From: a virus
Length of the DNA stretch: 64,000 nucleotides
Virus record (IMG/VR): IMGVR_UViG_3300045988_134806
Location: 1 to 64,000 of that record
Direction: 5' to 3' (one strand)
Both the position numbers and the translations under genes were made by a program. This document shows, piece after piece, positions 2,385 through 35,874 of this stretch (positions are counted from its first letter, which is position 1; the number at the start of each line of letters is the position of its first letter). The notes below the pieces were generated by a model. That model was given only the letters and a program-made list of their open reading frames with translations. It was not told the DNA's origin and did no database searches.

Positions 2385-2934
2385 TAAAGAGCTATTGTTT
2401 TCTTACAGAAAAAAGAAAACTATACGTGACATGCTGAAAACAGCCAATTTCTGGTTTAAATATTCTGGGTTTACCAGCGTACTAGAATACGGGATGTTTG
2501 ATACTTATTACACGATTACGCTAAATAATTTAACTGAAAAAAGTCAGTCATGCTCCGATATTGACTATAGCGGCCTTACAATATACCACCCAGATACGAA
2601 GGATATTATGTATGCACCGGTCTGTGCGTTATATAGTACAAACATAATCAAGGGCGATAATTATTATGGGGCCGTATTAATAGGTGACGTTTTTCGTTAT
2701 ACTTATACATCGGACGGAACATCGCTATATAGCTCCAGCACAAACCTTTACTGGTGCACGTCTAGAGATAATGATGCCACTCGGAAAGATAGCTATCGGC
2801 TAGCAAACTGGTTTAAAACAGTATATGGAGCAGGAACGTTTGGGGTTCCTGTTATCATGGCATTTTGGAAAGATGGCATTCCTGAAGATATAAAGACGTA
2901 CAAGACAAGTCTTGATGACTATCCAGATTGGTAG
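2377..2934 (+). CDS. hypothetical Tyr/Ser/Thr-rich protein (185 aa), AT-rich gene
   Basis: Long ORF with visibly lower GC than its flanks. No recognisable motif. Confidence 0.55.
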   Translation: MFNKELLFSYRKKKTIRDMLKTANFWFKYSGFTSVLEYGMFDTYYTITLNNLTEKSQSCSDIDYSGLTIYHPDTKDIMYAPVCALYSTNIIKGDNYYGAVLIGDVFRYTYTSDGTSLYSSSTNLYWCTSRDNDATRKDSYRLANWFKTVYGAGTFGVPVIMAFWKDGIPEDIKTYKTSLDDYPDW

Positions 2935-2983
2935 TACTCCTGAAACAAAAGTGGACAGCACATTTGTAAGGATTCGTAAAGAA

Positions 2984-3005
2984 CAGGGAGCTTGAAGGCT
3001 CCCTG
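2984..3005. terminator. bidirectional stem-loop between convergent genes
   Basis: CAGGGAGC-ttgaag-GCTCCCTG forms an 8-bp stem between the + gene ending at 2934 and the - gene ending at 3022. Confidence 0.5.
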
Positions 3006-3021
3006 AAGGTTTGTTAGAAGT

Positions 3022-3576
3022 TCAATGATGTTTTCCTAAGTCCGGGCCTCCGCCATGGCATTCCCATCCTGAACCATGATGACTCAATACACTTTTCCAA
3101 GAACTTGCGTACCCGCCAAGGTGGAACCCTTTCATAAAATTAGAATGATTTTTTGTTCTTACATTTTCTACCTCTATCCCCGGTCGTATTTTAGTTATCG
3201 TCTTTTGGGTTGAAGAAAACAACGTATGTTTAGTAGACCTCTTTTTCTGTTTAGTGCTTTTTTGGGAGTGGTGTGAGGACTTCACTACTATCTTGGCGTT
3301 CAAAAAGCTAGTAGGTTCAACATAAACTACTTTTACGCAAAGTATCCTCTCCTCTATGCATAAAGAGAGACCTAAGTTTTCCCCCTCTTTTTCAGGTATG
3401 TTAAGTGATGGTATGCATATTTTGACTGGTACCATGTTGAGCTCAAGCATGGTTCTTCCAGCAAGTTTTTTAGGAATTTGATGGCATCGACGAAGCTTTC
3501 CAAAGGGAAGAACATCGGTAATGACAGTGTTCGAAGGAGAGAAAAACTTAATGGGGAAGATGCCGAGGATTTTCAT
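3022..3576 (-). CDS. hypothetical protein (184 aa), opposite-strand cargo gene
   Basis: Long AT-rich ORF on the minus strand inside the rightward late region. Basic middle segment. No confident motif. Confidence 0.5.
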   Translation of the reverse strand: MKILGIFPIKFFSPSNTVITDVLPFGKLRRCHQIPKKLAGRTMLELNMVPVKICIPSLNIPEKEGENLGLSLCIEERILCVKVVYVEPTSFLNAKIVVKSSHHSQKSTKQKKRSTKHTLFSSTQKTITKIRPGIEVENVRTKNHSNFMKGFHLGGYASSWKSVLSHHGSGWECHGGGPDLGKHH

Positions 3577-3899
3577 TTCTTTTGGGACTGTTTATAAGAG
3601 TAAAACACAATTGCGCCTTCAATGAGAATCGGGACCCATAACACCCTTTCTTTCCAGCATTGATAAATGATTAAGGCCTGAGCGGCACTTAAAAAGAGCA
3701 GAGTTATTCCTTGGTCCCACGCAAATTTAGAAACTAAATAATTGCCTACGATAGGGACGATAAAAAGGGAGATTCCAATGATCAACAAGGCTCCGATAAG
3801 GATTCCTGTAGGATCATGCCCTGAATACCCTTGCCCATAGTAGTAACCGGCAGAGCAGGCGGCTGAGTAAAACAGCAGAAGAGGTAGTAACTTTTGCAT
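3573..3899 (-). CDS. small integral membrane protein (about 3 TM segments)
   Basis: Hydrophobic stretches LLPLLLFYSAACSA, ILIGALLIIGISLFIVPIV and ITLLFLSAAQALIIY. Its stop overlaps the downstream start by 4 nt (co-oriented pair). Confidence 0.6.
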   Translation of the reverse strand: MQKLLPLLLFYSAACSAGYYYGQGYSGHDPTGILIGALLIIGISLFIVPIVGNYLVSKFAWDQGITLLFLSAAQALIIYQCWKERVLWVPILIEGAIVFYSYKQSQKK

Positions 3900-4072
3900 A
3901 GTTTTCTCCTGTAACTAACTACTATCTTAACAAATCGTTACATAGGACTTTCCCGAGGGTGATCCCCTTAATAAGGCTATTTTTATCGTTTTCCCTATGC
4001 TCGTGCATACGTTACCTCAATACTTGAGACTAAATAATTTCAGGCCGATAAAATTATTGATTATCTGCAAGG

Positions 4073-23749: not shown

Positions 23750-26666
23750 CCAAAAGCCTCTTAAGGGTGAACCAGTCGCACCGGATCTGTGTCTTTGCCA
23801 GCTTAGGAATACCACGAGTAATCGTGGCCTTCTCGTTCTTCTTCCAAAGAAGACCCATCTGGAAAAGATCAGCTTCGAGCTTCTTAAGATCATGGCGGTT
23901 AGCCAAGCACCATTGGTTAAGCATTTTTCGGTCCACGATGAAGAGACCAATATTCACATCCTGAATACTCTTATCACCGACAATCATCCGAGCGATGTAT
24001 TTCTTCAGCGGAACTCTGTCTGCGTCATCAGGCGGAACCTCTTCATAACGACGAGTAGCAAGAATTTGCTCGCTATTGTCCTGAATAAACGAGAAGAGAA
24101 TTTCGTCGGCGGTCATCTCATTAGTTTCTTTAGATGCCACGCAGAGACTGATTACAGCTTCTTTGGCGAACTCAATCAGTTCTTTGATGTCGAACTTGCA
24201 AACTCCCAAATCCCGCATGATCTTTGCCGCCGTGATCGTCGTGACCATGTGCCAGCGGTAGAAGCGGTATTTCGGCTCCACACCTAAGAACTTGTTATCC
24301 ATGATCTCTTTCAGAGTGTCCGCCATCATCTGTCTGACATGTGTCAGATTGTCCATGATGTAGCTGATGTACAAGGGTCCTACAACACCCGAGTTGGCCT
24401 CCATCTTGGAAAGCGCTGCGGTCACTTCCAGCGGGTCAAGTGTGGGGATACCGTAGTTGTCCACACGGATCTCGAAGATACGCATGGCCTCAGCATCCGA
24501 TGTGCCGTTCTGAGAGAGACGGTCAATCAAACAAGAGTTGCCGGTCAGACCCACCTGAGTACACCAAGTGGCCGTGTCCGCGAAACCCACGCCGCCCACG
24601 TCTTTATTGACCTGCAAGCGGTTGCGGTCGCCTCCGTTGGAAACCACATAGGCGAGATTGGAGAGTTCGCCTGATTTAATGTTGGTAATCTCGTCGATCA
24701 GGATCGGCAGAGACTGCATGACACCAAGGAACGCAGTTCTTGCGTTCGGCGTAGCGCCTTGCTCACCCTTAATCGTCATCTTCTCAGCGTTGCCGAAAGC
24801 GTAGAGCCCGGCGGTAAAAGCCGATGTTTTGCCTCGGCCGGATGTCACACCGGTCAGAGCACACGGGATGCCTTTGTAAAGAGCGTCTTCCACGAGGCCT
24901 GCAAGCGGAGCGCCCCAGAGGGAGGCAATCGCATACTGCATCGGCTCCATGCCTTTACGAGCGTAGATGGAGTTGAGCGCCTCGGCGTACTTCATAGGAT
25001 CGCCCTCAGCCCCTACCTTAAAGAGCGCTGCCTTGGTTCTGGCATGTCCTCTTAAGACCACCTTGGCATCGACCTCGTGGGGTTTGTAGAGCTTCTCTCC
25101 GAGTAAGAACGCCTGCTTATCGTCTTGCCAACCGAAGCTCGTGAACGAGCGGGTCAGATCGACAGTGCGGCGCAGTGAGTTCATTGAATCTCTCAGATAG
25201 CCTGTCATCACTTGTTCACTTCCTTTATTCGTTGAAGGAGCAATTTCGTTTTTTCCTAACTCTTGCAGCAGGGTCACACCGCCAACCGAGATCGCTTTAC
25301 AAGAAACATAAAACTCTCTCTTTGCTCCGAAGGGTTCGTAGAGCACAGCTTTGCAGACGTAAGAGCCGTCGATCTCCCGAATGCGGGAGACGAGGTAGAA
25401 GCGGTAGGGCGTGAACGGAAACGCAGTTTCTCCGTCTTTGCTCTTAAGCACTTTGACCATCACTTCGTTCTGAGAGTCCCAGAAGTAGCCCTCCGGGTGT
25501 ACCTCATTAGTGAGCGGCAGTGCCGGTCTTTCTTCCTCGGGAACTTCCAGAGGAGGTTCCTCGACGGGTTCCACGACCACGCGGCCCGCAGTCAGCGGAG
25601 TTGCACACTTGTTCTTGCAGTCCTTGCAAAGTTCAGGACAGAGTGACCTAAAAGTTTCGCACTTGGTAGGCGCAGAGTTCCACGTGTCAAAACGAGTAGC
25701 AACGTCTGTGTTGGAGTGCCCCGTTTCGGATCTTTTGGCAGACCACTTAAACGCGGTTTCTCTACCATCCTTGCAGAACGTCAAAATGCCTATGGCGCTC
25801 CGCCAAGCGTCGTAACTCAGATCGCCTTGCGTCTCTCTGAACCGGTGCATCACCTGACAGTTGTCGGCAACTTTGTTCGCGTCGTACTCGTAGTTGTCAG
25901 AAAAATGGCTTAATTCCGAGTTGTCCGCTGAGTTGCCGAGCAAGTATGAAGGTAATTCACCTAGTTCAAACTCTTCTCCGGTGAGAGACGCAAGGACGGT
26001 CTTAACTTTCTCTCTGAAATCAGTAGGGGAAACCGGCATGTAGGGCACGCCCGTCCACTTAACTTCCTTGCTGCTTTCGTACTTCCTGTTATGTGTCCCC
26101 ACAGGGCGCAGAATCGAAGCTGAATCCGCTGTCCGGCTGGGGTCCGTAATAATGCCAAGCTCGCTAAAGAGTCTCTTTAGGAGCAGTGCGGTTTGTGTCC
26201 ATTGCGAAGCCTCAATCTCTTCCGTCAGCACCCAGTAAGCGTGAACTCCGTAGCCGGAGCTAATTACCAAGGGCATTGGCAGGTCTGTCTTCTCTTTAAA
26301 TGCCAGAAGTGCCTTAACCGCATCTTTCTGCGTGGCGTAGCCAATTCCTTTCTCTGCCTTGTCCTGACCACAATCTAGGTCAAGCCAAAACGACTTACAG
26401 TATGCCGCGTTCCTTTGGGATCGGGAAAACTTTTCTCCGGGAGCCGGTTTCTTATAACTTGCACAAGCGTGGTAGACCGTTCTTGCTGCATCCAGTTGTA
26501 CGATTTTTTCAGACATCTGTTCAAGCGTTTCACATTGGAAATGCTCGAAAATCAAACGAGGCTTTTCACCTTCGTCGGCAACGTTCCTCGGAGCTGCAAT
26601 GACATACAAACCGTTTCGGGGCAGAACGGCCCTCAAAAATTCGATTGTATTCATTGAGAACCTCAA
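23712..26666 (-). CDS. DNA primase/polymerase-helicase fusion (prim-pol N-terminus, SF3/D5-like helicase C-terminus)
   Basis: 984 aa. Cys cluster CPELCKDCKNKC. Walker A GVTSGRGKTS and Walker B LPILIDEIT in the C-terminal half. Sits in the replication module. Confidence 0.8.
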   Translation of the reverse strand: MRFSMNTIEFLRAVLPRNGLYVIAAPRNVADEGEKPRLIFEHFQCETLEQMSEKIVQLDAARTVYHACASYKKPAPGEKFSRSQRNAAYCKSFWLDLDCGQDKAEKGIGYATQKDAVKALLAFKEKTDLPMPLVISSGYGVHAYWVLTEEIEASQWTQTALLLKRLFSELGIITDPSRTADSASILRPVGTHNRKYESSKEVKWTGVPYMPVSPTDFREKVKTVLASLTGEEFELGELPSYLLGNSADNSELSHFSDNYEYDANKVADNCQVMHRFRETQGDLSYDAWRSAIGILTFCKDGRETAFKWSAKRSETGHSNTDVATRFDTWNSAPTKCETFRSLCPELCKDCKNKCATPLTAGRVVVEPVEEPPLEVPEEERPALPLTNEVHPEGYFWDSQNEVMVKVLKSKDGETAFPFTPYRFYLVSRIREIDGSYVCKAVLYEPFGAKREFYVSCKAISVGGVTLLQELGKNEIAPSTNKGSEQVMTGYLRDSMNSLRRTVDLTRSFTSFGWQDDKQAFLLGEKLYKPHEVDAKVVLRGHARTKAALFKVGAEGDPMKYAEALNSIYARKGMEPMQYAIASLWGAPLAGLVEDALYKGIPCALTGVTSGRGKTSAFTAGLYAFGNAEKMTIKGEQGATPNARTAFLGVMQSLPILIDEITNIKSGELSNLAYVVSNGGDRNRLQVNKDVGGVGFADTATWCTQVGLTGNSCLIDRLSQNGTSDAEAMRIFEIRVDNYGIPTLDPLEVTAALSKMEANSGVVGPLYISYIMDNLTHVRQMMADTLKEIMDNKFLGVEPKYRFYRWHMVTTITAAKIMRDLGVCKFDIKELIEFAKEAVISLCVASKETNEMTADEILFSFIQDNSEQILATRRYEEVPPDDADRVPLKKYIARMIVGDKSIQDVNIGLFIVDRKMLNQWCLANRHDLKKLEADLFQMGLLWKKNEKATITRGIPKLAKTQIRCDWFTLKRLLDDRDDIKLTGTK

Positions 26667-26728
26667 AAATTTGGCCCGGTTTTTGTCCAGAACCGGGAAA
26701 CTGGCTTACCTTCGGCCTAACGGAGGTA

Positions 26729-27691
26729 TTAGAACTTGAAGTCTTCCAAGCCCGGGACTTCATCAGAAGAAGCAATCTGAGTGACCTCTTCTTTCTTAGT
26801 CTCTACGACTTCTTTGACAACTTCGGGTGTGATCTTACCGGTGGCAACAGCGGCTTCCACGGGGGAAACCTTGGGCTTGTCAGCGGCTGCGGGAGCCGGA
26901 GCGGCCGTCGGAGCAACACCGTTTTTGACAGCCTCTTCATAGGCTTTCAAGTGCTCCAGCACATCGGGAGTTTCACCCGTGATCGCCATAACGGTCGGGT
27001 CATTGTGCTCTTCCTGCACCAGACGGAACTGGTCTTCGTCGAGGAAGCCGACAGGCTCAAACACGAGCTTCTGAGCGGTCTCGTTCGGGTCGAACTTAAT
27101 GCGTGTAACGGCAGCCATGTAGGGCACATTGTGCTTCGTGAGCTTGGCGCCATAGTCGCCCAGAGCCTTAATGGATGTGGGCGGAACGCGCAGCAGCATG
27201 GTTTCTTTCAGAGATCCTCTCGGGGCGATTGCCAAGCGGACTGCGTCACGGCATGCTTTGCCTTTACCGGCGATACCCTTGGCGTCAACAGCGGAGCCCC
27301 ATGCGTTCTTCGGACAAGTCTTGCAGCTGGCACTCTGAGGCTGAGCACAACCCTGATCGGGGATGATACCTGTGGAAGAGAAGCAGATCGGAGTCTGAGC
27401 TTCTTCATTGTCAGCATTGTAAGTGCCGGAGTAGTAAGCCTTGGCTGTGAATTTCGGAACACGAACGAGAACCACGTCAATGTACTGAGCGGTGGAGCTC
27501 GGGTCCAGCGGGTTCATAACCACTTTCTTTTCATCGCCGCGAATGACAGTGAAACGCTTGCCGTTCAAGGACAGAACAGGGAAGGACAAAGAAGCGTGGG
27601 CGGTAATATCGCCGTTTAAAGCTTCAACGTTTGTCTGAGCGAGGTATGCAGGAAGGGGTGCGGATGCAAAAATAGAAATGTCATTAGCCAT
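26729..27691 (-). CDS. putative ssDNA-binding / recombination-associated protein
   Basis: 320 aa with CKTCPKNAWGS..GKGKAC and an acidic, Ala/Pro-rich C-terminal tail. Function inferred from position between primase and helicase genes. Confidence 0.4.
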   Translation of the reverse strand: MANDISIFASAPLPAYLAQTNVEALNGDITAHASLSFPVLSLNGKRFTVIRGDEKKVVMNPLDPSSTAQYIDVVLVRVPKFTAKAYYSGTYNADNEEAQTPICFSSTGIIPDQGCAQPQSASCKTCPKNAWGSAVDAKGIAGKGKACRDAVRLAIAPRGSLKETMLLRVPPTSIKALGDYGAKLTKHNVPYMAAVTRIKFDPNETAQKLVFEPVGFLDEDQFRLVQEEHNDPTVMAITGETPDVLEHLKAYEEAVKNGVAPTAAPAPAAADKPKVSPVEAAVATGKITPEVVKEVVETKKEEVTQIASSDEVPGLEDFKF

Positions 27692-27703
27692 TATCTTCTC
27701 CAG

Positions 27704-28093
27704 TTAGGCCTTACGGAAATTGAGCGTGATTTCTTCATTGTAATCGACGCCCGGTGGCAGAACGCCGCGTCCTGCCTTGTACTCTTCTACAGCAGACTTG
27801 AGCGGACGAACTTCCAAAAGTTCAAACATGTTGTTGTCTTTGACAAAGTCCATGAAGGCTGCTTTGTCGGGACAGGAAATTTTTACTCGGGTAGAGCGAT
27901 AAGCAGTACCGGATTCAGTCTTGTAGGACTGCACGCCGTCAATAGCCATTTTGTTGAGAATCGCAGATTCCAGCTTGGCAATATTAGCGTTAATCGGAGC
28001 CATCGCTTCTTTGAAGGCCGCCTCTTTAGCTGCCTTTTCTTCCTTGCATTTACGAAGGAAACCGATTGCTTCTTGAATTGTACACATAAGCAT
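27704..28093 (-). CDS. hypothetical protein (129 aa), N-terminal coiled coil
   Basis: ORF in the replication module. No confident motif. Confidence 0.55.
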   Translation of the reverse strand: MLMCTIQEAIGFLRKCKEEKAAKEAAFKEAMAPINANIAKLESAILNKMAIDGVQSYKTESGTAYRSTRVKISCPDKAAFMDFVKDNNMFELLEVRPLKSAVEEYKAGRGVLPPGVDYNEEITLNFRKA

Positions 28094-28132
28094 TCCTGTA
28101 GGTAAGTAATTGCATTCTATATGTGAAGTCGT

Positions 28133-29704
28133 TTAATTGCAAGATTGAGTACTTTCCCGCATGAGGTCTAGTAAAGTTCCTTGCAAGCTTTGGCGGTTCT
28201 TCAATCGTTCATAAACAACTTCTTCATACTTCGTGGAAACAATGTGAACGATAACCGTCGTGTGCTTCTGGCCGGGGCGTCTGACGCGGGCGCAAGCCTG
28301 CTGATATGTCTCGTTGGAATAAACCGGCCCAAACCAAATAATGGTTGTAGCTGCTGTCAGTGTTAGACCGTGGGACATCGCTGTCGGGTTTGCCACGAGC
28401 ACTTTCGGATCATCGGTGCGCTGGAAAAGAGCAAATATTCTGTCTCGATCTTCCTTTGAAGTAGAGCCGTCAATCACTTCGTTGGTCACTCCAGTATCTG
28501 TTAGATATTTGGAAACTCTTTGTAAAGCGGCTGTGAACGGGATGAACACGATGCACTTGCCCTCAGAGGCCTCAATCGTCTCCATGAGCACTTCCAAGCG
28601 CTTCAAGATGGGATACTCGACCACAGTATCGTTATCGCCGTAGAGCGAGCCCAAGGCGATCTGCATGAGCTTGGAAGCCTTGATGGCTTCGTTGCTTGCC
28701 GTTATGTCTCCTTCTTCGAATTGCACCTGAAGCGAAGAGAGCATCGCCTTATATGCCAGCTCTTGAGGCGCAGACATCTCTGCTTTCTTGGTGAGGAACA
28801 CCTGCGGGGGCAGGTCCAAGCACTCGTCGATACTGAAACGCACGGCGGGCTGCATGACACGATGAACATAAGCAGCAGAATCAGGCTTAGGCAACCATTT
28901 GAACTGGTTGACTTGCGTCATTACCTGATTGCGGAAGCTGTTGTAATAGAGCGGGCAGTCCTTATTATTCGGCGTTACCAACCGGATCTGAGCGTAAGCA
29001 TCAGCAGGGGAGTTCGGGATCGGAGAACCTGTCAGCCCCCAGACACGGCGCGGTGTCTGCTTGTTGCAGATGGTGTTGAGTGCCTTCCAGCGGTCGGTCG
29101 TTTTCGTGCGCATAAGCGCCAGCTCGTCGATCACGATGAGATCAATGTCTCTTCGGGCAGCCAGCTCATCGACGATGATCTTGGCACCGTCGGTGTTAAT
29201 GAGATAAATGTCCGCCGGATCTTTGAGAAGCTTCAGGCGTTTATCTTTCGTGCCGTAGAGCACATTAACCTTGTACTGCGGGAAGCTGAAAAACGCTTCG
29301 TCAGCCCATGTTCTTTCCAAGGTGGAAAGAGGACAGACAACGAGCATGGAACGAACCTGACCGCACTTTTTCAAGTAGTCGTAGGCCCACAGCGTTGTGA
29401 TTGTTTTGCCAAGGCCCATGCTGTTAAGGATGAAGCAGCGGTCGTTCATCGTGGCGAACTCCGCCGAGATCCTCTGAGCTTCAAAGGGTTTGAACTTCGC
29501 AGGGAAGTCGTAGTACATCTGCATGGGAGAGGGCACATCGTAGCCCAAAGAACGAAGCACCCTCGTTTCGTCGGGCCGGTGCGGCACGGCTACCATCGGC
29601 CCCTTGGCGGTTTTAACAACTTTGGCCGCCGGGATGACGGTTGTAATCTGTGCGGGATTCTGCGGCTGAAGCAGAACCGCTTGTTTGTCTTTGAGAATAA
29701 TCAT
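28133..29704 (-). CDS. SNF2-family (SF2) helicase
   Basis: Motif I MGLGKTIT, motif II LIVIDELA, and C-terminal helicase motifs LVANPTAMSHGLTL and QQACARVRRPGQ. Confidence 0.85.
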   Translation of the reverse strand: MIILKDKQAVLLQPQNPAQITTVIPAAKVVKTAKGPMVAVPHRPDETRVLRSLGYDVPSPMQMYYDFPAKFKPFEAQRISAEFATMNDRCFILNSMGLGKTITTLWAYDYLKKCGQVRSMLVVCPLSTLERTWADEAFFSFPQYKVNVLYGTKDKRLKLLKDPADIYLINTDGAKIIVDELAARRDIDLIVIDELALMRTKTTDRWKALNTICNKQTPRRVWGLTGSPIPNSPADAYAQIRLVTPNNKDCPLYYNSFRNQVMTQVNQFKWLPKPDSAAYVHRVMQPAVRFSIDECLDLPPQVFLTKKAEMSAPQELAYKAMLSSLQVQFEEGDITASNEAIKASKLMQIALGSLYGDNDTVVEYPILKRLEVLMETIEASEGKCIVFIPFTAALQRVSKYLTDTGVTNEVIDGSTSKEDRDRIFALFQRTDDPKVLVANPTAMSHGLTLTAATTIIWFGPVYSNETYQQACARVRRPGQKHTTVIVHIVSTKYEEVVYERLKNRQSLQGTLLDLMRESTQSCN

Positions 29705-29716
29705 AGTTGCAGAGAA

Positions 29717-29989
29717 TTAAACTTTCCGAACTTTATACCCGGACTCTCCTTTACGCCACCCTCGATTACGATGACGCGAGATCACGCGGGTGTTGGACTT
29801 CGCACCGGAACCACCGGCCGATAAGGGTGTAATGTGGTCGATGTCCTTGTTATCCCCCTTCGAGACAAGTCCTTCACGGATCGCTTGGCGTCTTGCCTTG
29901 TTGCGGAGCACACGCTTATGGATATTTTCCGGTTTTGCGTCTCTGATTCTGTTGTACTCCCGTCCGCGGGGAGTGTTGCTGTTAGCCAT
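29717..29989 (-). CDS. small HNH endonuclease-like protein (90 aa)
   Basis: DIDHITPLSAGGSGAKSNTRVISRHRNRG fits the His-Me finger pattern. ATG at 29989 is preferred over the track start. Confidence 0.6.
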   Translation of the reverse strand: MANSNTPRGREYNRIRDAKPENIHKRVLRNKARRQAIREGLVSKGDNKDIDHITPLSAGGSGAKSNTRVISRHRNRGWRKGESGYKVRKV

Positions 29990-30200
29990 AATTTCTCCTT
30001 TCCGCTTCTTGGCGGGCTCTGTAGTCCATCTCGCACTCAATGCAGCAGAACTTATGCGCCGTTGTCTCCACGGGTTCTCCGCAGTTGATGCACTTCTGCT
30101 CATAATTGATGAACTGTGGCGGGGCTTTTGACTGCCCTTTAATGAGAGCGCTGAGGATTACTCCTTCGTTCTCGGTTGCTCGGTCGATCTCGTCGGCCAT
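29982..30200 (-). CDS. TraR/DksA-family C4 zinc-finger protein
   Basis: 72 aa with CINCGEPV...CCIEC spacing typical of phage TraR-like proteins. Confidence 0.7.
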   Translation of the reverse strand: MADEIDRATENEGVILSALIKGQSKAPPQFINYEQKCINCGEPVETTAHKFCCIECEMDYRARQEAERRNYG

Positions 30201-30212
30201 GTCACTATCTCC

Positions 30213-30572
30213 TTATGGGACATACTTGGTTGTTTCTGCTTCTTTTTTTAATAAATCAATACACTCCTTGGCAAATGATGCTGTCTCAGTGACAATAGCC
30301 ATCCCGCCTGCGGCGTATATTTCATTTAGGGCCTTCTTTTGATTTGGAGTCGTATTCTTCAGCTTGCCCTTTGCTTTTGCTTCTATGCCTCCGAACACTC
30401 CCAAGGTCTTGCCAACCATATCCTGTGTGATAGTCACCGGGATACAGCAAATAAAATCTGGAACTCCGACAGAGCTAAAACCACATGGCACTACCATGTA
30501 GAAGTAGCAATTCTCGTTTTTGAGAAGAATTTTAATCTCTTTCTTAACCTTCCCCTCTGGTGTTGTTGCCAT
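30213..30572 (-). CDS. VRR-NUC domain nuclease
   Basis: GVPDFICC ... GGIEAKAKGK (PD-ExK core) and ..NQKKALNEIYAAGG. Start taken at ATG 30572; the track start is 30602. Confidence 0.75.
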   Translation of the reverse strand: MATTPEGKVKKEIKILLKNENCYFYMVVPCGFSSVGVPDFICCIPVTITQDMVGKTLGVFGGIEAKAKGKLKNTTPNQKKALNEIYAAGGMAIVTETASFAKECIDLLKKEAETTKYVP

Positions 30573-31269
30573 TTCTTCTCCCTCTATAAACCAGCGGATC
30601 AAATAAGTGCTCTTCGCTCCAACCTCTTTTTATTCTGTGCATTACAGTATCTAAACTAATTCCTGTTTGCTTGCAGCGTTCTTCATAGAACTTTGTTATA
30701 TCGCCCTTAGTTATCGGCCGTCTGAGCCTCTCGCCGCGGTCACCGTCAGAATACCGCGACACCAAAGTGACGTACGAGATACCCGTTTCTTGACTTATTT
30801 CCTTTAACGTTTGCCCGTTATCTTTTATTGTCAGTCTCTTGTTGTAAGCCTGTTCCTCAGTAGTTGCCCACCGACAATTTTCTTTGCAATAGCCTTTGTT
30901 AGGGTCAATCCTATCAATAGATTTATCCTCAGAATAGCCAGACTTCATGTCCTTCCAAAAACCGTTAAAAGTCTCCCAATCATCAGAAACTTTAATTCCT
31001 CTGGCTCCGTAGTTCTTAAAGTCTTTGTTCTTCGGATTGTTGCAACGGTTTTTCATACCTACCCAAATCCGATAAGGTCGTGATCTACGCCCATGCTTTT
31101 GAATCTCTCCGTGTGTAGGGTCCCCTCTGCAACCACAAGAAGGCTTTGCTCCTTGCTTAACGTGAGAGCGGAGAGAAGCAAGTCTCTTTACAACAACTGT
31201 TCCACAAACGCACTGACACTCAACCATAGTAGTCCATCTTTGCCCCTGTGCTTCTCTAAGAACGGTCAA
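30544..31269 (-). CDS. free-standing homing-endonuclease-like protein (Zn-ribbon + LDRID..NCRW HNH-like core + C-terminal HTH)
   Basis: CQCVCG..PSCGC, NYGARGIKVSDDW, SIDRIDPNKGYCKENCRWATTEEQAYNKR. Clear paralog of the ORF nested in the PolA intein (33411..34121). Confidence 0.75.
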   Translation of the reverse strand: MTVLREAQGQRWTTMVECQCVCGTVVVKRLASLRSHVKQGAKPSCGCRGDPTHGEIQKHGRRSRPYRIWVGMKNRCNNPKNKDFKNYGARGIKVSDDWETFNGFWKDMKSGYSEDKSIDRIDPNKGYCKENCRWATTEEQAYNKRLTIKDNGQTLKEISQETGISYVTLVSRYSDGDRGERLRRPITKGDITKFYEERCKQTGISLDTVMHRIKRGWSEEHLFDPLVYRGRRNGNNTRGEG

Positions 31270-31303
31270 AAATCCGAACTTCTCTCCGACAGGGATGGGG
31301 AGT

Positions 31304-31525
31304 TTATTCGCGGGAATCCTGCGATGTGCCTTCTGGGTTCTCCTTTGGTTCTAAGAGAACTGAGACGGCTAAGCTCGCCAGCTGGTTGACGTAATCTTCC
31401 AGTCTCGTAGCAAGCTCCTTTTCAAATGGTTTCAGATGATCCCAGCTTTGCGCGGCCATCTTAATCAGTTCTCTGTCGCTGAGCTTCTCAAGCTCTTCTA
31501 CTTTCAATAAGTCTTTTTGTCTCAT
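31304..31525 (-). CDS. hypothetical protein (73 aa)
   Basis: ORF overlapping the upstream stop by 4 nt. Helical and charged. Confidence 0.5.
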   Translation of the reverse strand: MRQKDLLKVEELEKLSDRELIKMAAQSWDHLKPFEKELATRLEDYVNQLASLAVSVLLEPKENPEGTSQDSRE

Positions 31526-32178
31526 TTCTTGGCCTCATAGTGCTCACAGGTTATACATGGACACCAACCTTTACATAGGCCGGAAGGTCTTGCGGGCCAA
31601 TCGTCATTGTTGTAAGCGTTCTCAAGTCGGGAAGCTCGGGTGAGGAACGGTTTCCACAACTCCGGGATGTCGTCTCGCTTAAAGATTGTCTTATCAACTT
31701 TCTTTTCTTTGAGCCAAATAAACCCTGACTCAACTTCCTTCACTGTCGGATAGTGAGCAAAGGCAAAGAGTGCGTAGAGTTCTAACTGCTCAGTCACCTT
31801 GCGTTTCCCTGTCTTGTAGTCCACCAGCAATACTTTGGAAGGTGTTTCCACAAGCAAATCAGCGATTCCTCGGGCCCAGCCCTTACGCCATTCCGTCGGC
31901 TGGAAAGCCTTGTCAACTGCGAGCTTAATCTCGCAGTGCTTGATGCCCGGCATTGCCCTTAATTGATCTCCAATGTTTTGGAAACTTGCCATCTCAGCAG
32001 GGAAGGGCTTCCCAAAAGAGATATTTTCTTCAAACGCTTTGTGGACGGTGTTTCCCCACTTGATGTATTCCGACTCAGGCTCCTTAACATCATAGGCAAC
32101 CCGAGTGTGATAGAAACGCTTCGGACAAGTCTCGAAGCCATCTAAGTGGGAGTACGTCCACGGCTTCATCTTCGCCAT
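31522..32178 (-). CDS. PD-(D/E)xK Cas4/RecB-like exonuclease with Cys cluster (DUF2800-like)
   Basis: IADLLV..VLLVDYKTGK (D..DxK core). N-terminal Cys in FETCPKRFY plus C-terminal CKGWCPCITC resembles a Cas4-type Fe-S arrangement. Confidence 0.7.
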   Translation of the reverse strand: MAKMKPWTYSHLDGFETCPKRFYHTRVAYDVKEPESEYIKWGNTVHKAFEENISFGKPFPAEMASFQNIGDQLRAMPGIKHCEIKLAVDKAFQPTEWRKGWARGIADLLVETPSKVLLVDYKTGKRKVTEQLELYALFAFAHYPTVKEVESGFIWLKEKKVDKTIFKRDDIPELWKPFLTRASRLENAYNNDDWPARPSGLCKGWCPCITCEHYEAKK

Positions 32179-32213
32179 GTTTGTCTCCGTGGGGACAGCG
32201 TGTCCCCGGGTAG

Positions 32214-33083
32214 TTACTTCTTAAATTTCTGTTGGAGTTTCTGAATCTTATCCATTCGCTTATCGCTGTGAAAGTATTTACCTACAATATCGGGAAACCG
32301 AATATTGCTTCGCACAATCTTCGCGCCGCGCTCTTCAGCATCCAATGCTCGGATCGTGGCTGAGAGGTCTCTGTCATACTCTTCCCAGAACTTAGCCCGA
32401 GCTTCATGCTTCGATACTCCATTAACTGCGTGCTCTTGGGCGTAGAACCCTGCGGCAAGCGCAGCTCTGGAAGTCATTTTCTTAAAATCCTTGGCGAGAT
32501 CTCCCTTGAGCTCGTCTACGTTATGCAAGTAGCAGAAGAGACGCTCCTGCGCTGCTCTGCGGGCGCGGAAAACCTTCAGGTAAGCATTCTGCTTAGTGCT
32601 GATCTCTTCCTTTTTTACCATCAAGCGGGCGTCAACCAGCTTGCGGAAGCGTGTCATGCTCGCCTTGGCAATAGGCACCAAGACCTCCAAGCACGCTTTG
32701 TCGCCTCGGAGCGCAGAGAGTCGAGCTTTTGTCACATCCCCGTCATAAGAGATGATCGAATTAACCACGCGAAGCGGGCGATCCAAGGCACTTAAAAAGT
32801 CAAACGCTTTATCGATCTTTTCTTTGTTCTCAGAAATGTAGGCTTCCAAGTCAAAATCATGCTTCTTTATACGCATTACCAGATCAAACAAGCGCTCAAT
32901 GGCCTGTGGATTTTCGCGTCCGAAGTTGATAAGAGTCTTTGTCCGGGGAAGGATACCGCTGTTGACAGGCTTACCCGGGTTGCGGATGTAGTCGCGAATG
33001 GTGGATAGAGCTGCTCTCCAGTGTCTTGAATCGCAGATATCTTGAATTGCATCAGCAATCTCTTGATATTGTTTATCTTCCAT
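32214..33083 (-). CDS. hypothetical protein (289 aa)
   Basis: Long helical ORF between the polymerase and nuclease genes. No motif. Confidence 0.6.
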   Translation of the reverse strand: MEDKQYQEIADAIQDICDSRHWRAALSTIRDYIRNPGKPVNSGILPRTKTLINFGRENPQAIERLFDLVMRIKKHDFDLEAYISENKEKIDKAFDFLSALDRPLRVVNSIISYDGDVTKARLSALRGDKACLEVLVPIAKASMTRFRKLVDARLMVKKEEISTKQNAYLKVFRARRAAQERLFCYLHNVDELKGDLAKDFKKMTSRAALAAGFYAQEHAVNGVSKHEARAKFWEEYDRDLSATIRALDAEERGAKIVRSNIRFPDIVGKYFHSDKRMDKIQKLQQKFKK

Positions 33084-33120
33084 TTCGGCTCCATTTTGAA
33101 ACTTTGATATATTTTACATG

Positions 33121-35874
33121 CTATTTTGCTTCTCCGTATGACTTTCCGATACCACCTTCACAATCCACTGGGAGATCAGGCGCCCAAGCGGGACGAACTC
33201 TCATCATCTCTTCCATCATTGCCTTGGTTTCCTCAGCTTCTTCTTCAGGTACGACTACTACGACTTCGTCGTGTACGGTAAGTACAACTTGTCGGATCTT
33301 GCCATTGGAGTTTCCTCCTTTCTCCTTGAGCTTCTGGGCTATCCGGCCCATCTGCCAAAAGACCACTTCTCTCGCTAATGCTTGGATGATGTTCTCGCAG
33401 TTATGGACGATTAACGGCTTCCCGTCTGATCCTTGGACGACGTACCTGTGTCGGCGTCCGCAGTTTGTAATGTCGAAAACCTCCGACTCAAATCCGGTGG
33501 GTCTGCCAAGTGCTCTAAGGGCACTCCGTTCTTGATCCTGTAGTGAACTGTTGTTACTCCCAAGCCATGCTTTCTGGCAAACTCCGCTATTGTCAGGTCG
33601 CCGATCCTTACATTGTTGCGTTTGTTGTTTGCCTGTTTCCGCATCGTAATCCAACGACAATTCGATGGCTCGTAGTTCCCATTCACGTCTATACGGTCCA
33701 GCGAAAGCCCAGCCTTGTAAGTCGGACCCATATCCGCATAGAAGTTCTCGAACTTTTCCAGCCACCTTTCGCAGACCTTGATCCCACGTCCTCCGTAGTT
33801 TTTCCAAGCCTGAGCATTGGGGTCCGTACATCTTTGCTTCATTGAGTGCCAGACATTCCATATTGGCGTTGCTGCCATGCCATGCCTTGTTAAGGCCTTG
33901 GAAAAATGCTCTCTGTGTTTGCATCCACAGCTTGGAAGGTAGCCGGCTCTTACTTGACTCTTTAGCTCGTGTGAATCCCTTAATACCTCTTTCCCACATT
34001 CGCATCTGTATTTCCAGTAGCTGTGATGCTTTCTGATGTGAGAGAAGCTCAAAGCCGTTAGGTAACCGAACTTCTGCCCGGTCAAATCTTTCCGCGGTTT
34101 CCCCGGTGCGCCAGCCGTCATTTGTTAGCACCTTATGATCCTTTGTCATTGAAACTCCGAATACTTCAATGACTTGTTTTTTTCCGTTAAAAGCAACTCC
34201 GGTGTGCTTAACCCATTCAACACCGTCCCATACCTTGTCAGTGAGTTCAACATCCTGAATAGGAATCCATCCTCTGGAAGTTAGGACGGGTGTGTCCTTT
34301 GCTATGCAAAGCTTTCCGCCGTAGATCTTTGTCCTAAAGTTCTTCCTCCTATAAGAGTAGCCTTTCTCTTCTTTGTCGTTAGCTTCTGCGCGGTAGCGAA
34401 GCTCAGGGTAGAGCAGATAAGTACCGTTAGGAAGCCAAATCTTTCCGGGCTCGTACTTGAGCTTGACGCCTTCTCCAAACTCGCCGCTGTAGCCTGCAAC
34501 CATATTGGAAAGAACGTCACTACATGTCTGCCACATGGACTTAATGGCATAATTTGAGCTCCTATAGATGTCAACAATTCGTTGGCATTCTGCATCACTC
34601 ATTATAACGTTTCCGTTCTTCAATGCAGATTGAAGTTTTCTCCAACCCACCTGATAACCTAATCCAAGCGTAGCGGTTTTTCCGACGAATCTTTCAAGCT
34701 TATCAGCCTTCGTAATTTTCCGTCCGTAGATCTTAGAAGCCAGTTCGCAATACACATCGTTCCCTTCGGCAAAATGCTTAACTAGGTCTAATTGACCGCT
34801 AAACCAAGCATTAACCCTCCCTTCAATGTTGCTCGAGTCGCAGGCGCAGATCATGTGCTTAGGCGGAGCAATCAGCGACTTCCTTATTTCTCCTCCGCGG
34901 GGGAGATTTTGAAGATTTAATTTGTCACCCCCTGAAGCTCTTCCTGTTGACCCTCCCCAATAATTAAGTAGTATAGGTAAGGGTCCCCGATTAGCCACCC
35001 CTATGAGACTTTCCGTTCTTGTCTCTTCAATCGTGCTCTTAGTCCCGAGGCGTGCTGCTGCCACGGCCTGCACACGTTCGTCCGGGTGCTCCAAGAGTTC
35101 CTTAAAGCCGTCGTCCGTCTTAGCAAACGCAAACGTTTCCTTACCAGTAGTAGGGCTCACCTTCATGGGAGGCGTAACTCCAAGGCTTTTCAGAACCTCA
35201 GCGAAGAGGTTGTTGCTCATCAGCTGATCCTTCGTGAAAGGGATTCGGGAGAGAAGCTCTTGTTTCTTCGCTCTTACGTCAGCTAGGTGGGCTTCGAGCC
35301 TCGGCTTGTCCAAGACGATCTTTGGCTCCGTGAACATCCGCAGCATCATGTCGATGATGACAAGCTCGCCTTTGGTCGTGTATGGGAGCAGTTTCTTAAA
35401 GAGGTGGTACGTAAGGTTCACGTCCTGCCTGCAATAAACACCGAAGGCATCGAGCTCCGACCTCGTGAAGTCTTTCTTGCGTTTGCCCAGCGTGTTGTAG
35501 ATCTCCGTGCCTTTCTCGCCCAAGCCGAACAGCTTGGAAAGCGCTCGCAACGAACTTCCCACTGTAAGCCCAGTGAGAGGGCGGGCCATGCTCAATGTGT
35601 CGAGCAGAAACTTCGGATGGATGTCGTAGATCCACGAAAGAATCGCGCCATCAAATGCAGTGTTGTGGCAGAGGACTTGGTGATCCTCCAAGTGAAGAGC
35701 CTTAAGCTCTTCGCCTATGTTCTCCGTGATCCATCTGATGCCTCCTGAATCAATCTTCACCGAGACACCGATTACCTCAAATCTGGGATCTCTTATGTAG
35801 GATTCTGTGGTCATCTTTGAAAGACTAAAGTCTTTGCTATAGAAAGTCTCAAAGTCCAAAACGACTAGCGACAT
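33121..35874 (-). CDS. family A DNA polymerase with 3'-5' exonuclease domain, interrupted by a 303-aa intein
   Basis: Exo motifs VLDFETF, HNTAFDGAIL, YCRQDV. Pol motif A CACDSSNIEGRV, motif B RFVGKTATLGLGYQVG, motif C LTVHDEVVVV. The intein lies between KIYGGKL and CENIIQALARE. Confidence 0.9.
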   Translation of the reverse strand: MSLVVLDFETFYSKDFSLSKMTTESYIRDPRFEVIGVSVKIDSGGIRWITENIGEELKALHLEDHQVLCHNTAFDGAILSWIYDIHPKFLLDTLSMARPLTGLTVGSSLRALSKLFGLGEKGTEIYNTLGKRKKDFTRSELDAFGVYCRQDVNLTYHLFKKLLPYTTKGELVIIDMMLRMFTEPKIVLDKPRLEAHLADVRAKKQELLSRIPFTKDQLMSNNLFAEVLKSLGVTPPMKVSPTTGKETFAFAKTDDGFKELLEHPDERVQAVAAARLGTKSTIEETRTESLIGVANRGPLPILLNYWGGSTGRASGGDKLNLQNLPRGGEIRKSLIAPPKHMICACDSSNIEGRVNAWFSGQLDLVKHFAEGNDVYCELASKIYGRKITKADKLERFVGKTATLGLGYQVGWRKLQSALKNGNVIMSDAECQRIVDIYRSSNYAIKSMWQTCSDVLSNMVAGYSGEFGEGVKLKYEPGKIWLPNGTYLLYPELRYRAEANDKEEKGYSYRRKNFRTKIYGGKLCIAKDTPVLTSRGWIPIQDVELTDKVWDGVEWVKHTGVAFNGKKQVIEVFGVSMTKDHKVLTNDGWRTGETAERFDRAEVRLPNGFELLSHQKASQLLEIQMRMWERGIKGFTRAKESSKSRLPSKLWMQTQRAFFQGLNKAWHGSNANMECLALNEAKMYGPQCSGLEKLRRTWDQGLRKVAGKVRELLCGYGSDLQGWAFAGPYRREWELRAIELSLDYDAETGKQQTQQCKDRRPDNSGVCQKAWLGSNNSSLQDQERSALRALGRPTGFESEVFDITNCGRRHRYVVQGSDGKPLIVHNCENIIQALAREVVFWQMGRIAQKLKEKGGNSNGKIRQVVLTVHDEVVVVVPEEEAEETKAMMEEMMRVRPAWAPDLPVDCEGGIGKSYGEAK
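33400..34308 (-). mobile_element. intein in PolA (Cys1 ... His-Asn / Cys+1)
   Basis: Block A CIAKDTPVLT, block B MTKDHKVLTNDGW, blocks F/G EVFDITN..HRYVVQGSDGKPLIVHN followed by C. Length is 909 nt, in frame with the polymerase. Confidence 0.85.
33411..34121 (-). CDS. homing-endonuclease-like ORF nested inside the intein in a different reading frame
   Basis: 236 aa, frame-shifted by 1 nt relative to the pol/intein frame. Shares the motifs of ORF 30544..31269 (PSCGC, NYGGRGIKVCERW, SLDRIDVNGNYEPSNCRWIT, HTH). AAGGTG lies 8 nt upstream of its ATG. Confidence 0.75.
   Translation of the reverse strand: MTAGAPGKPRKDLTGQKFGYLTALSFSHIRKHHSYWKYRCECGKEVLRDSHELKSQVRAGYLPSCGCKHREHFSKALTRHGMAATPIWNVWHSMKQRCTDPNAQAWKNYGGRGIKVCERWLEKFENFYADMGPTYKAGLSLDRIDVNGNYEPSNCRWITMRKQANNKRNNVRIGDLTIAEFARKHGLGVTTVHYRIKNGVPLEHLADPPDLSRRFSTLQTADADTGTSSKDQTGSR

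Follow-up and report, generated by a model that had tools for sequence, protein, structure and literature searches.

A phage DNA polymerase intein with a putative homing endonuclease gene in the +1 frame

Inteins with endonuclease genes in alternative frames

The possibility that endonuclease homologs are encoded in alternative open reading frames (ORFs) of inteins was raised by Gorbalenya in 1998, as cited in later papers, and such elements are described in two preprints from the Gogarten laboratory. The 2025 preprint (bioRxiv 10.1101/2025.01.02.630785) describes inteins of actinophages in which frame 3 contains an endonuclease VII-like gene, and predicts that inteins of this kind have been overlooked and are more common than detected; the 2026 preprint shows that a cyanobacterial dnaX intein has a +2 ORF for a LAGLIDADG enzyme and that selection differs between its frames in the same way as described here. 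We analyzed a 64,000-nucleotide (nt) stretch of viral DNA (positions 1 to 64,000 of IMG/VR record IMGVR_UViG_3300045988_134806; hereinafter, the window), in which the gene for a family A DNA polymerase (PolA) carries an intein with an ORF of an endonuclease-like family in the +1 frame, while the polymerase frame stays open throughout. The layout as such is already published, and the window adds a further case, from a clade that exceeds the published examples in size.

The cyanobacterial dnaX intein resembles the window element in that, between the splicing domains, an endonuclease gene overlaps the intein sequence in another reading frame; the host frame is open and evolves freely, the endonuclease frame is subject to purifying selection, Shine-Dalgarno (SD)-like motifs are located upstream, mini-inteins coexist, and secondary invasion of a mini-intein has been proposed. 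The two differ in that dnaX is a bacterial chromosomal gene with a LAGLIDADG enzyme in a +2 ORF, whereas the window combines an uncharacterized HNH_3-like family, the +1 register and a phage PolA; furthermore, the window clade, unlike the dnaX case, spans several insertion sites and host genes. The actinobacteriophage inteins share with the window element an in-frame middle portion without a recognizable fold and the proposed invasion by a free-standing endonuclease, but their endonuclease genes are endonuclease VII-like in frame 3, or antisense LAGLIDADG or Vsr-like genes, and their hosts are DNA polymerase (in the survey, the Pol III alpha subunit), minor capsid protein, TerL and thymidylate synthase. 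In contrast, the window endonuclease has no Pfam/InterPro-type match, and the host is PolA of phages infecting Gram-negative and other bacteria.

Two other arrangements are partially similar. Fractured genes (Dassa et al. 2009, PMC2677866), that is, split inteins with a free-standing endonuclease gene between the halves, likewise have a free-standing-type endonuclease gene in an intein-coding region, short coding overlaps and an invasion model, but the endonucleases are GIY-YIG or Vsr-like, whereas the host gene in the window is a single 917-codon ORF. A fractured gene or split intein is ruled out for the window, the host gene being uninterrupted, so that the intein would splice in cis. The ShiLan-type HNH insertions in phage methylases (Arsenault et al. 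2025, PMC11855218) also hide an endonuclease ORF in an alternative frame without adding a host-frame stop; unlike the window ORF, which is accompanied by intein blocks and an SD-like motif, they have neither splicing domains nor a detectable ribosome-binding site.

A member of the window's own intein family has been visible in GenBank since 1999 as the P45/P46 overlap of the Hamiltonella phage APSE-1 (NC_000935). The P45 intein occupies the same site (KTYGGKS/CLAKG...IVHN/CENI), with P46 at the same +1 offset and no stops in the polymerase frame; the P46 endonuclease is 45% identical to the window +1 protein, whereas the polymerase is only about 30% identical to the window PolA. In RefSeq, P46 is annotated as an "HNH endonuclease" of 141 amino acids (aa) within P45, starting at an internal ATG (L001 locus 2645..3067); the homology reaches a GTG codon 76 codons upstream (216 aa, L001 locus 2417..3067) and includes the Zn-ribbon module. 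The APSE intein is known and has been differentially lost among APSE variants (PMC7313666); in the literature that we searched, papers on APSE and inteins included, we found none that describes the PolA/APSE intein family or links P46 to the intein.

Two overlapping frames under unlike constraints

The PolA ORF of the window (Table 1) matches PF00476 (E=1e-31), also contains the 3'-5' exonuclease domain, and harbors an insert of exactly 303 aa with the boundaries KIYGGKL/CIAKDTPVLT and PLIVHN/CENII. A reading of the sequence alone, made before this analysis and hereinafter called the sequence-only reading, had already placed an intein of this length here, and all its coordinates hold, on the minus strand. 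Removal of the insert yields a contiguous, conserved host protein: the spliced window PolA aligns without gaps across the junction with the intein-less PolA of Pseudomonas phage KPP25 (KIYGGKLCENIIQALAR versus KIYGGLLTENIVQCLAR), with Thr opposite Cys+1. Reciprocal empty sites come from related inteins that are inserted one residue earlier (YGGK/C...HN/CVEN) or three residues later (...EN/C...HN/CxQA). The alignment of the spliced C-terminal region with sequences of PolA crystal structures was too weak for a junction test, and KPP25 was used instead.

The insert displays the hallmarks of class-1 inteins. The nucleophile Cys1 immediately follows KIYGGKL; block B contains the TxxH signature (MTKDH, intein aa 54-58), with T, D and H invariant across four lineages; and the C-terminal LIVHN/C is invariant in the alignment. 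The N-terminal splicing (Hint) domain is conserved in the four lineages and retained in a mini-intein (L071), and the C-terminal domain includes invariant alignment columns and is matched by hidden Markov models (HMMs) in all relatives. Known-family matches of the intein-frame translation are confined to the first ~70 residues (phrog_93 and phrog_26005, at intein aa 3-72); Pfam produced no match for the splicing domain, and there was no HMM match to the center of the intein frame, as anticipated from its lack of an endonuclease motif. By motifs and junction, the identification of the element as a genuine class-1 intein, with splicing predicted, is supported.

The polymerase frame is open far beyond chance. 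Across the intein, it contains no stops, compared with 5 in the +1 frame, all outside the ORF, and 25 in the +2 frame; the 236-aa ORF, originally noticed in a frame shifted by 1 nt, is confirmed at +1. When the protein encoded by the ORF was fixed and the synonymous codons were shuffled 20,000 times, the number of polymerase-frame stops ranged from 4 to 24, with a mean of 12.7, and none of the shuffles was free of stops. When codons were instead drawn according to the codon usage of the window, the mean was about 15 stops, and the free-standing paralog of the +1 ORF (Table 1) has 24 stops in the same relative frame. Among the 80 closest IMG/VR homologs of the endonuclease, 15 are embedded in inteins, all at +1 with no stops, and the other 65 are free-standing, with 1 to 42 stops in the corresponding frame except for two with none. 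These two (L142 and L143) were considered as embedded copies and rejected; both are GC-rich free-standing genes.

To assess selection, we compared the window with L003, a contig from another metagenome, found via P0001, that is collinear with the window and has the identical layout (303-aa intein, +1 ORF, no polymerase-frame stops); the two differ at 11% of nucleotides in an ungapped alignment of 1,089 nt that covers the intein and its flanks. In the overlap, 60 of the 83 substitutions fall on the third codon position of the endonuclease frame. The codon changes are 51 synonymous and 20 non-synonymous in the endonuclease frame versus 11 and 60 in the polymerase frame (7 and 47 in the core), and the amino acid identities are 92% and 75%, respectively. 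The same pattern is seen family-wide, over 52 unique full-length elements: pairs of elements are on average 50% identical in the endonuclease core, 26% identical when these nucleotides are read in the polymerase frame and 54% identical in the Hint N-domain, with zero polymerase-frame stops in all 52. Given the synonymous excess and the higher identity in the +1 frame, the endonuclease frame is under purifying selection, whereas the central ~190 codons of the intein frame are selected only for the absence of stops. Thus, the suggestion of the sequence-only reading that both frames are constrained stands for the endonuclease but not for the amino acid sequence of the intein middle. Real double coding is limited to the ends, namely ~25 codons on the 5' side (Hint N-domain through RLPNG, with an invariant RLP motif) and ~30 codons on the 3' side (blocks F and G). 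The last ~27 aa of the +1 ORF, which overlap blocks F and G, form a low-confidence tail in the structure model, and this tail is missing from APSE-1 and from Caulobacter phage GB2A.

The codon rule behind the open frame is simple. In the +1 register, a polymerase-frame stop arises only from an NNT codon followed by a codon that starts with AA, AG or GA. None of the 71 codons at risk in the embedded ORF ends in T, as opposed to 42 of its 164 other codons (26%) and to 24 of the 83 at-risk codons in the free-standing paralog. The polymerase frame is kept open purely through synonymous codon choice in the endonuclease frame and, because every NNT codon has a synonymous NNC codon, the overlap costs the endonuclease no amino acid freedom. 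Such cost-free avoidance of stops may be the reason for the near-universal +1 offset. The window thus presents overlapping genes under unlike constraint, where selection acts on the amino acid sequence in one frame and only on the absence of stops in the other.

Table 1. Features of the polA locus and the free-standing paralog in the window
Feature	Coordinates	Strand	Description
PolA ORF	33121..35874	minus	family A DNA polymerase; 917-aa precursor, 614 aa once spliced
N-extein	34309..35874	minus	522 aa; ends ...RTKIYGGKL
C-extein	33121..33399	minus	92 aa + stop; starts CENIIQALAR; contains motif C (LTVHDE)
Intein	33400..34308	minus	303 aa; class-1 features: Cys1, block B TKDH, C-terminal HN followed by Cys+1
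N-terminal splicing (Hint) domain	34045..34308 (approximate limits)	minus	intein aa 1-~88; blocks A and B through RLPNG
Central intein-frame linker	33496..34044	minus	~183 codons; open, poorly conserved, no family match; endonuclease body in the +1 frame
C-terminal splicing domain	33400..33495	minus	blocks F and G: GFESEVFDITNCGRRHRYVVQGSDGKPLIVHN
+1-frame ORF	33411..34121	minus	236 aa; endonuclease family: Zn-ribbon, HNH_3-like core, helix-turn-helix (HTH)
ATG start of +1 ORF	34119..34121	minus	same-frame TAA two codons upstream, at 34125..34127
SD-like AAGGTG	34129..34134	minus	7 nt upstream of ATG; Lys-Val codons of intein block B
Free-standing paralog	30544..31269	minus	241 aa; 33% identity to the embedded ORF; outside the intein

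Proposed mechanism and the nature of the +1 protein

We consider it likely that the window element is a non-canonical intein, in which a class-1 intein in the conserved GGKL/xEN motif of PolA and a free-standing-type endonuclease gene at +1, located where an in-frame endonuclease domain normally sits, home as a unit. Ribosomes translating polA would read straight through the stop-free polymerase frame, yielding a precursor in which the N- and C-lobes of Hint are joined by a linker of ~180 aa without conserved sequence; protein splicing would then remove the whole insert and restore YGGKL-CENIIQ. The +1 protein would be translated separately from the polA mRNA via internal initiation and, in co-infection, would cut intein-less polA alleles, the repair of which would copy the intein and the gene as one unit (homing).

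Several observations weigh against this interpretation, in which splicing, translation of the +1 ORF and DNA cleavage are predictions from the sequence. Curated intein HMMs barely detect the splicing domain (for TIGR01445, E=0.031 and 15.2 bits, under the cut-off of 24.5), so that intein membership rests on the motifs and the junction. With regard to expression, the SD match in the window (AAGGTG) is only moderate, no sigma-70 promoter was detected on the minus strand within polA, and the predicted folding of the RNA near the ribosome-binding site does not exceed that of shuffled sequences (z=-0.39), with no regulatory structure; neither result points to separate transcription or to masking of the ribosome-binding site. 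With regard to function, the +1 ORF has no match in Pfam or NCBIfam; Foldseek searches of the Protein Data Bank (PDB) with the full model and with the core-domain model gave no significant match, the best matches of the core being HNH enzymes at non-significant E-values (1.1 and 3); and the phmmer search of the PDB returned only a chance match. The endonuclease label of the +1 protein comes only from family names; the general-base His of HNH enzymes (D-H at the end of strand beta-1 in I-HmuI) corresponds to Arg143, which is invariant in 77 sequences; and some family members contain tandem module repeats, as in DNA-binding modules. Finally, in-frame versions of the endonuclease could exist among the 88 of the 168 IMG/VR matches that lie outside the set examined for layout (see below).

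The +1 ORF and the free-standing paralog both match phrog_374 ("HNH endonuclease", E=6.6e-68 for the +1 ORF) and phrog_3377, which bears out the paralogy proposed from the sequence alone. The family comprises at least 7,890 homologs at E<=1e-5, mostly free-standing phage genes, under the names of HNH endonuclease, HTH homing endonuclease, AP2/ERF, DNA-binding and PVL ORF-50-like protein (relatives in BFVD among them). The AlphaFold2 (AF2) model (pLDDT 90.5) has three parts: an N-terminal beta/Zn-ribbon (CxC...CGC), a helical core with a beta-beta-alpha unit at its end, and an HTH domain. The sole profile link is that of the family profile to I-HmuI over the motif (E=0.011), with LDRID...N...NCRW...N opposite VDHKD...N...NLRW...N; because the general-base His is replaced by Arg143, we do not file the +1 ORF as a bona fide HNH enzyme. 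Several longer free-standing relatives (P0005, P0008, P0010 and P0019) contain two or three tandem copies of the Zn-ribbon and/or of the YGGRGI...DRID...NCRW core, which suggests that these are modular DNA-binding units.

The invariant Arg, the lack of a Pfam HNH match and of a significant structural match, the tandem repeats of the Zn-ribbon and core modules, and the BFVD names that refer to AP2/ERF, DNA-binding or PVL ORF-50-like proteins besides HNH would all be compatible with the +1 protein being a sequence-specific DNA-binding regulator, or a recruiter of another nuclease; the overlap architecture would be unchanged, but mobility would not be driven by catalysis of the +1 protein itself. 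This alternative deserves attention but appears unlikely, given that the genes behave as mobile ones: of two collinear phages, one has the free-standing copy and the other lacks it, the embedded copies accompany inteins at no fewer than seven insertion sites in two host genes, and loss of the ORF gives mini-inteins, as in the homing cycle. Moreover, an active site of an unconventional type could be built from the invariant residues H80, Y109, D142 and N166. It is from this behavior, the presence or absence of the free-standing copy and the association of the embedded copies with inteins, that we infer nuclease activity of the +1 protein. If so, the window points to an abundant phage protein family with a predicted nuclease role.

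The paralog is missing in L003, where the flanks are directly joined (window 30573..31327 versus L003 3828..3857), an indel of the kind to be expected from a mobile free-standing endonuclease gene; the paralog is the natural control for the embedded ORF and may represent the donor type. The region of the adjacent VRR_NUC gene (window ~30213..30542) does not align with L003 either. The divergence between the two phages is mosaic, with 79% identity in the segment from polA to the PD-(D/E)XK gene (window 31328..35157) and 93-95% identity in the adjacent 24000..30212.

The +1 ORF is probably translated by internal initiation on the polA mRNA, at the SD motif and ATG within block B. We surveyed the start sites of 62 unique embedded ORFs, defining an SD core as a match of at least 4 nt located 4-17 nt upstream. 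In 61 of the 62 ORFs, the homology begins at a start codon (37 ATG, 19 GTG and 5 TTG), located at intein residues ~57-77, just past block B; an SD core, often built by the conserved (E/K)-G-W codons, precedes 74% of these 61 starts versus 15% of control positions; and an in-frame stop is located 0-19 codons upstream of the start across the embedded ORFs. For the window itself, the AAGGTG and the ATG pointed out previously are borne out, with a spacer of 7 rather than 8 nt. The conserved start, the SD-like motif and the nearby upstream stop favor internal initiation over the other route suggested by the sequence-only reading, programmed +1 ribosomal frameshifting after block B, which would produce a fusion of the N-extein, HintN and the endonuclease. 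Frameshifting would fit the +1 offset in nearly every family member and the start of the ORF directly past a conserved coding motif, but in the window a TAA closes the endonuclease frame two codons ahead of the ATG, and in the relatives a stop occurs 0-19 codons upstream, so that there is little or no room for a conserved shift site; neither a slippery motif nor a stimulatory RNA structure is evident, whereas start codons are nearly universal and SD cores are enriched five-fold. With the uniform offset explained by stop avoidance that costs no amino acids in the +1 register, we regard frameshifting as very unlikely.

Even less probable is that the +1 ORF is a decaying, unexpressed relic, so that the element is effectively a mini-intein with a junk linker, or, in a variant of this scenario, that the insert does not splice and polA is a pseudogene. 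Decayed relatives do exist, including shortened ORFs (L012, L020 and L070), the mini-intein L071 and elements with polymerase-frame stops (L032 and L073), but in the window and L003 the ORF is intact and evolves under purifying selection as described above, and its AF2 model is confident. None of the splicing residues (C1, TxxH and HN/C) is missing, and the exteins are conserved, with 9 synonymous and no non-synonymous changes between the window and L003 on the N-junction side and 13 and 3, respectively, on the other; the window polymerase is the replicase of this phage. A sequencing or assembly artefact, that is, two compensating indels that displaced an ordinary in-frame endonuclease domain, can be dismissed as already refuted by the comparative data, since it would not create a stop-free alternative frame of 237 codons, since the gapless alignment with L003 from a different metagenome, Sanger-sequenced isolates, APSE-1, Caulobacter phage isolates and about 90 IMG/VR contigs all show the same frames, so that the paired indels once named as a possible refutation fail, and since a gene of its own is what the SD motif, the ATG and the TAA shortly before it would suggest.

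Distribution and variants of the intein clade

Searching IMG/VR with the intein alignment yielded 168 contigs; the layout counts cover 82 loci, namely 79 of these contigs and L001-L003. In 77 of the 82, both splicing domains belong to one uninterrupted ORF and the endonuclease homolog is at +1; the remainder consists of two loci with a polymerase-frame stop, one mini-intein of 135 aa, one locus with the gene at +2 and one incomplete locus. Alignment with homologous PolA inteins, which had been proposed as a check, showed the endonuclease in frame in none of the 82 loci, and there was no in-frame Hint-endonuclease fusion among the 120 best homologs of the endonuclease. In total, about 90 IMG/VR contigs share the +1 layout. 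APSE-1 and Caulobacter phage GB2A have the same insertion site, +1 offset, endonuclease family and stop-free polymerase frame, with polymerases only 30-32% identical to the window PolA, and prophage copies are found in Parapusillimonas, Oscillospiraceae, Arsenophonus and others. The window phage is not a sequenced isolate, as indicated by a megablast search with polA that gave no match among 50,697 phage records.

The +1 layout did not arise in the window phage; it is the ancestral state of a large clade of inteins that occupy several PolA sites and also SNF2-type helicases. The earlier idea that a mini-intein was invaded by a free-standing homing endonuclease gene is plausible as an old event but not as one in this phage; the window element supports the view of intein evolution in which the splicing domain came first and the endonuclease was acquired later. 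Inteins of this kind are common in phages and are missed by annotation, which predicts a single long polymerase gene and either omits or truncates the endonuclease, as in the case of APSE-1 P46.

More tentatively, the available loci might together represent a large, old and so far undescribed clade, with at least 168 IMG/VR contigs as well as prophages of Proteobacteria, Firmicutes and others, in which the mobility gene is almost always at +1 and has its ribosome-binding site in block-B codons, and which has spread to no fewer than four PolA sites and three sites of SNF2-type helicases; the HNH_3-derived mobility protein with the invariant Arg would then be a new family of homing endonucleases with an unconventional active site. 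If this is the case, the clade would be a natural demonstration that the endonuclease loop of an intein tolerates ~180 residues of essentially arbitrary sequence, a tolerance of the linker that is relevant to intein engineering.

The mini-intein L071 retains the first ~20 codons of the ORF in the +1 frame (MHHRAIDIT...) along with part of the HTH region, which shows that the endonuclease body was deleted, as expected late in the homing cycle; P0002 and P0003 are further mini-inteins. L073 (~2997..4053) has 5 polymerase-frame stops around an intact endonuclease ORF (E=5e-67), and its block G reads VSN; it resembles the fractured-gene state and could be either a fractured gene with a split intein or a pseudogene. 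In L032, a single stop is located within the Hint N-domain.

In the window, the SNF2-type helicase (28133..29704, minus strand) has an unoccupied intein site (KLMQIA-LGSLYG), and motif B of PolA (VGKTATLGLGYQVG) is unoccupied as well. In the homologous helicases of L028, L029, L062, L069, L070 and L072, the KLxQIA/CG..Y site is occupied by inteins of the same family, with a +1 ORF. An intein with a +1 ORF is present in PolA motif B of L076 and L081 (..AKT/C...HN/CGLGI.YGMG), a site different from that in the window; L079, L080 and L082 have the same motif B intein, with unresolved boundaries. L078 (679..2802) contains two inteins of the window's family in one PolA: for the first one, the matches of the N- and C-domains are in different frames, and in the second one, located in motif B (GKT/C...HN/CILGLGYG), the endonuclease is at +2 with the host frame open, the only +2 case seen. 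The L064 helicase has an additional intein-like insert upstream (CFVKGTLVQT...VLVHN/C), as does the L076 PolA (C-VSADTLIET...LIHHN/S), so that these two genes carry multiple inteins.

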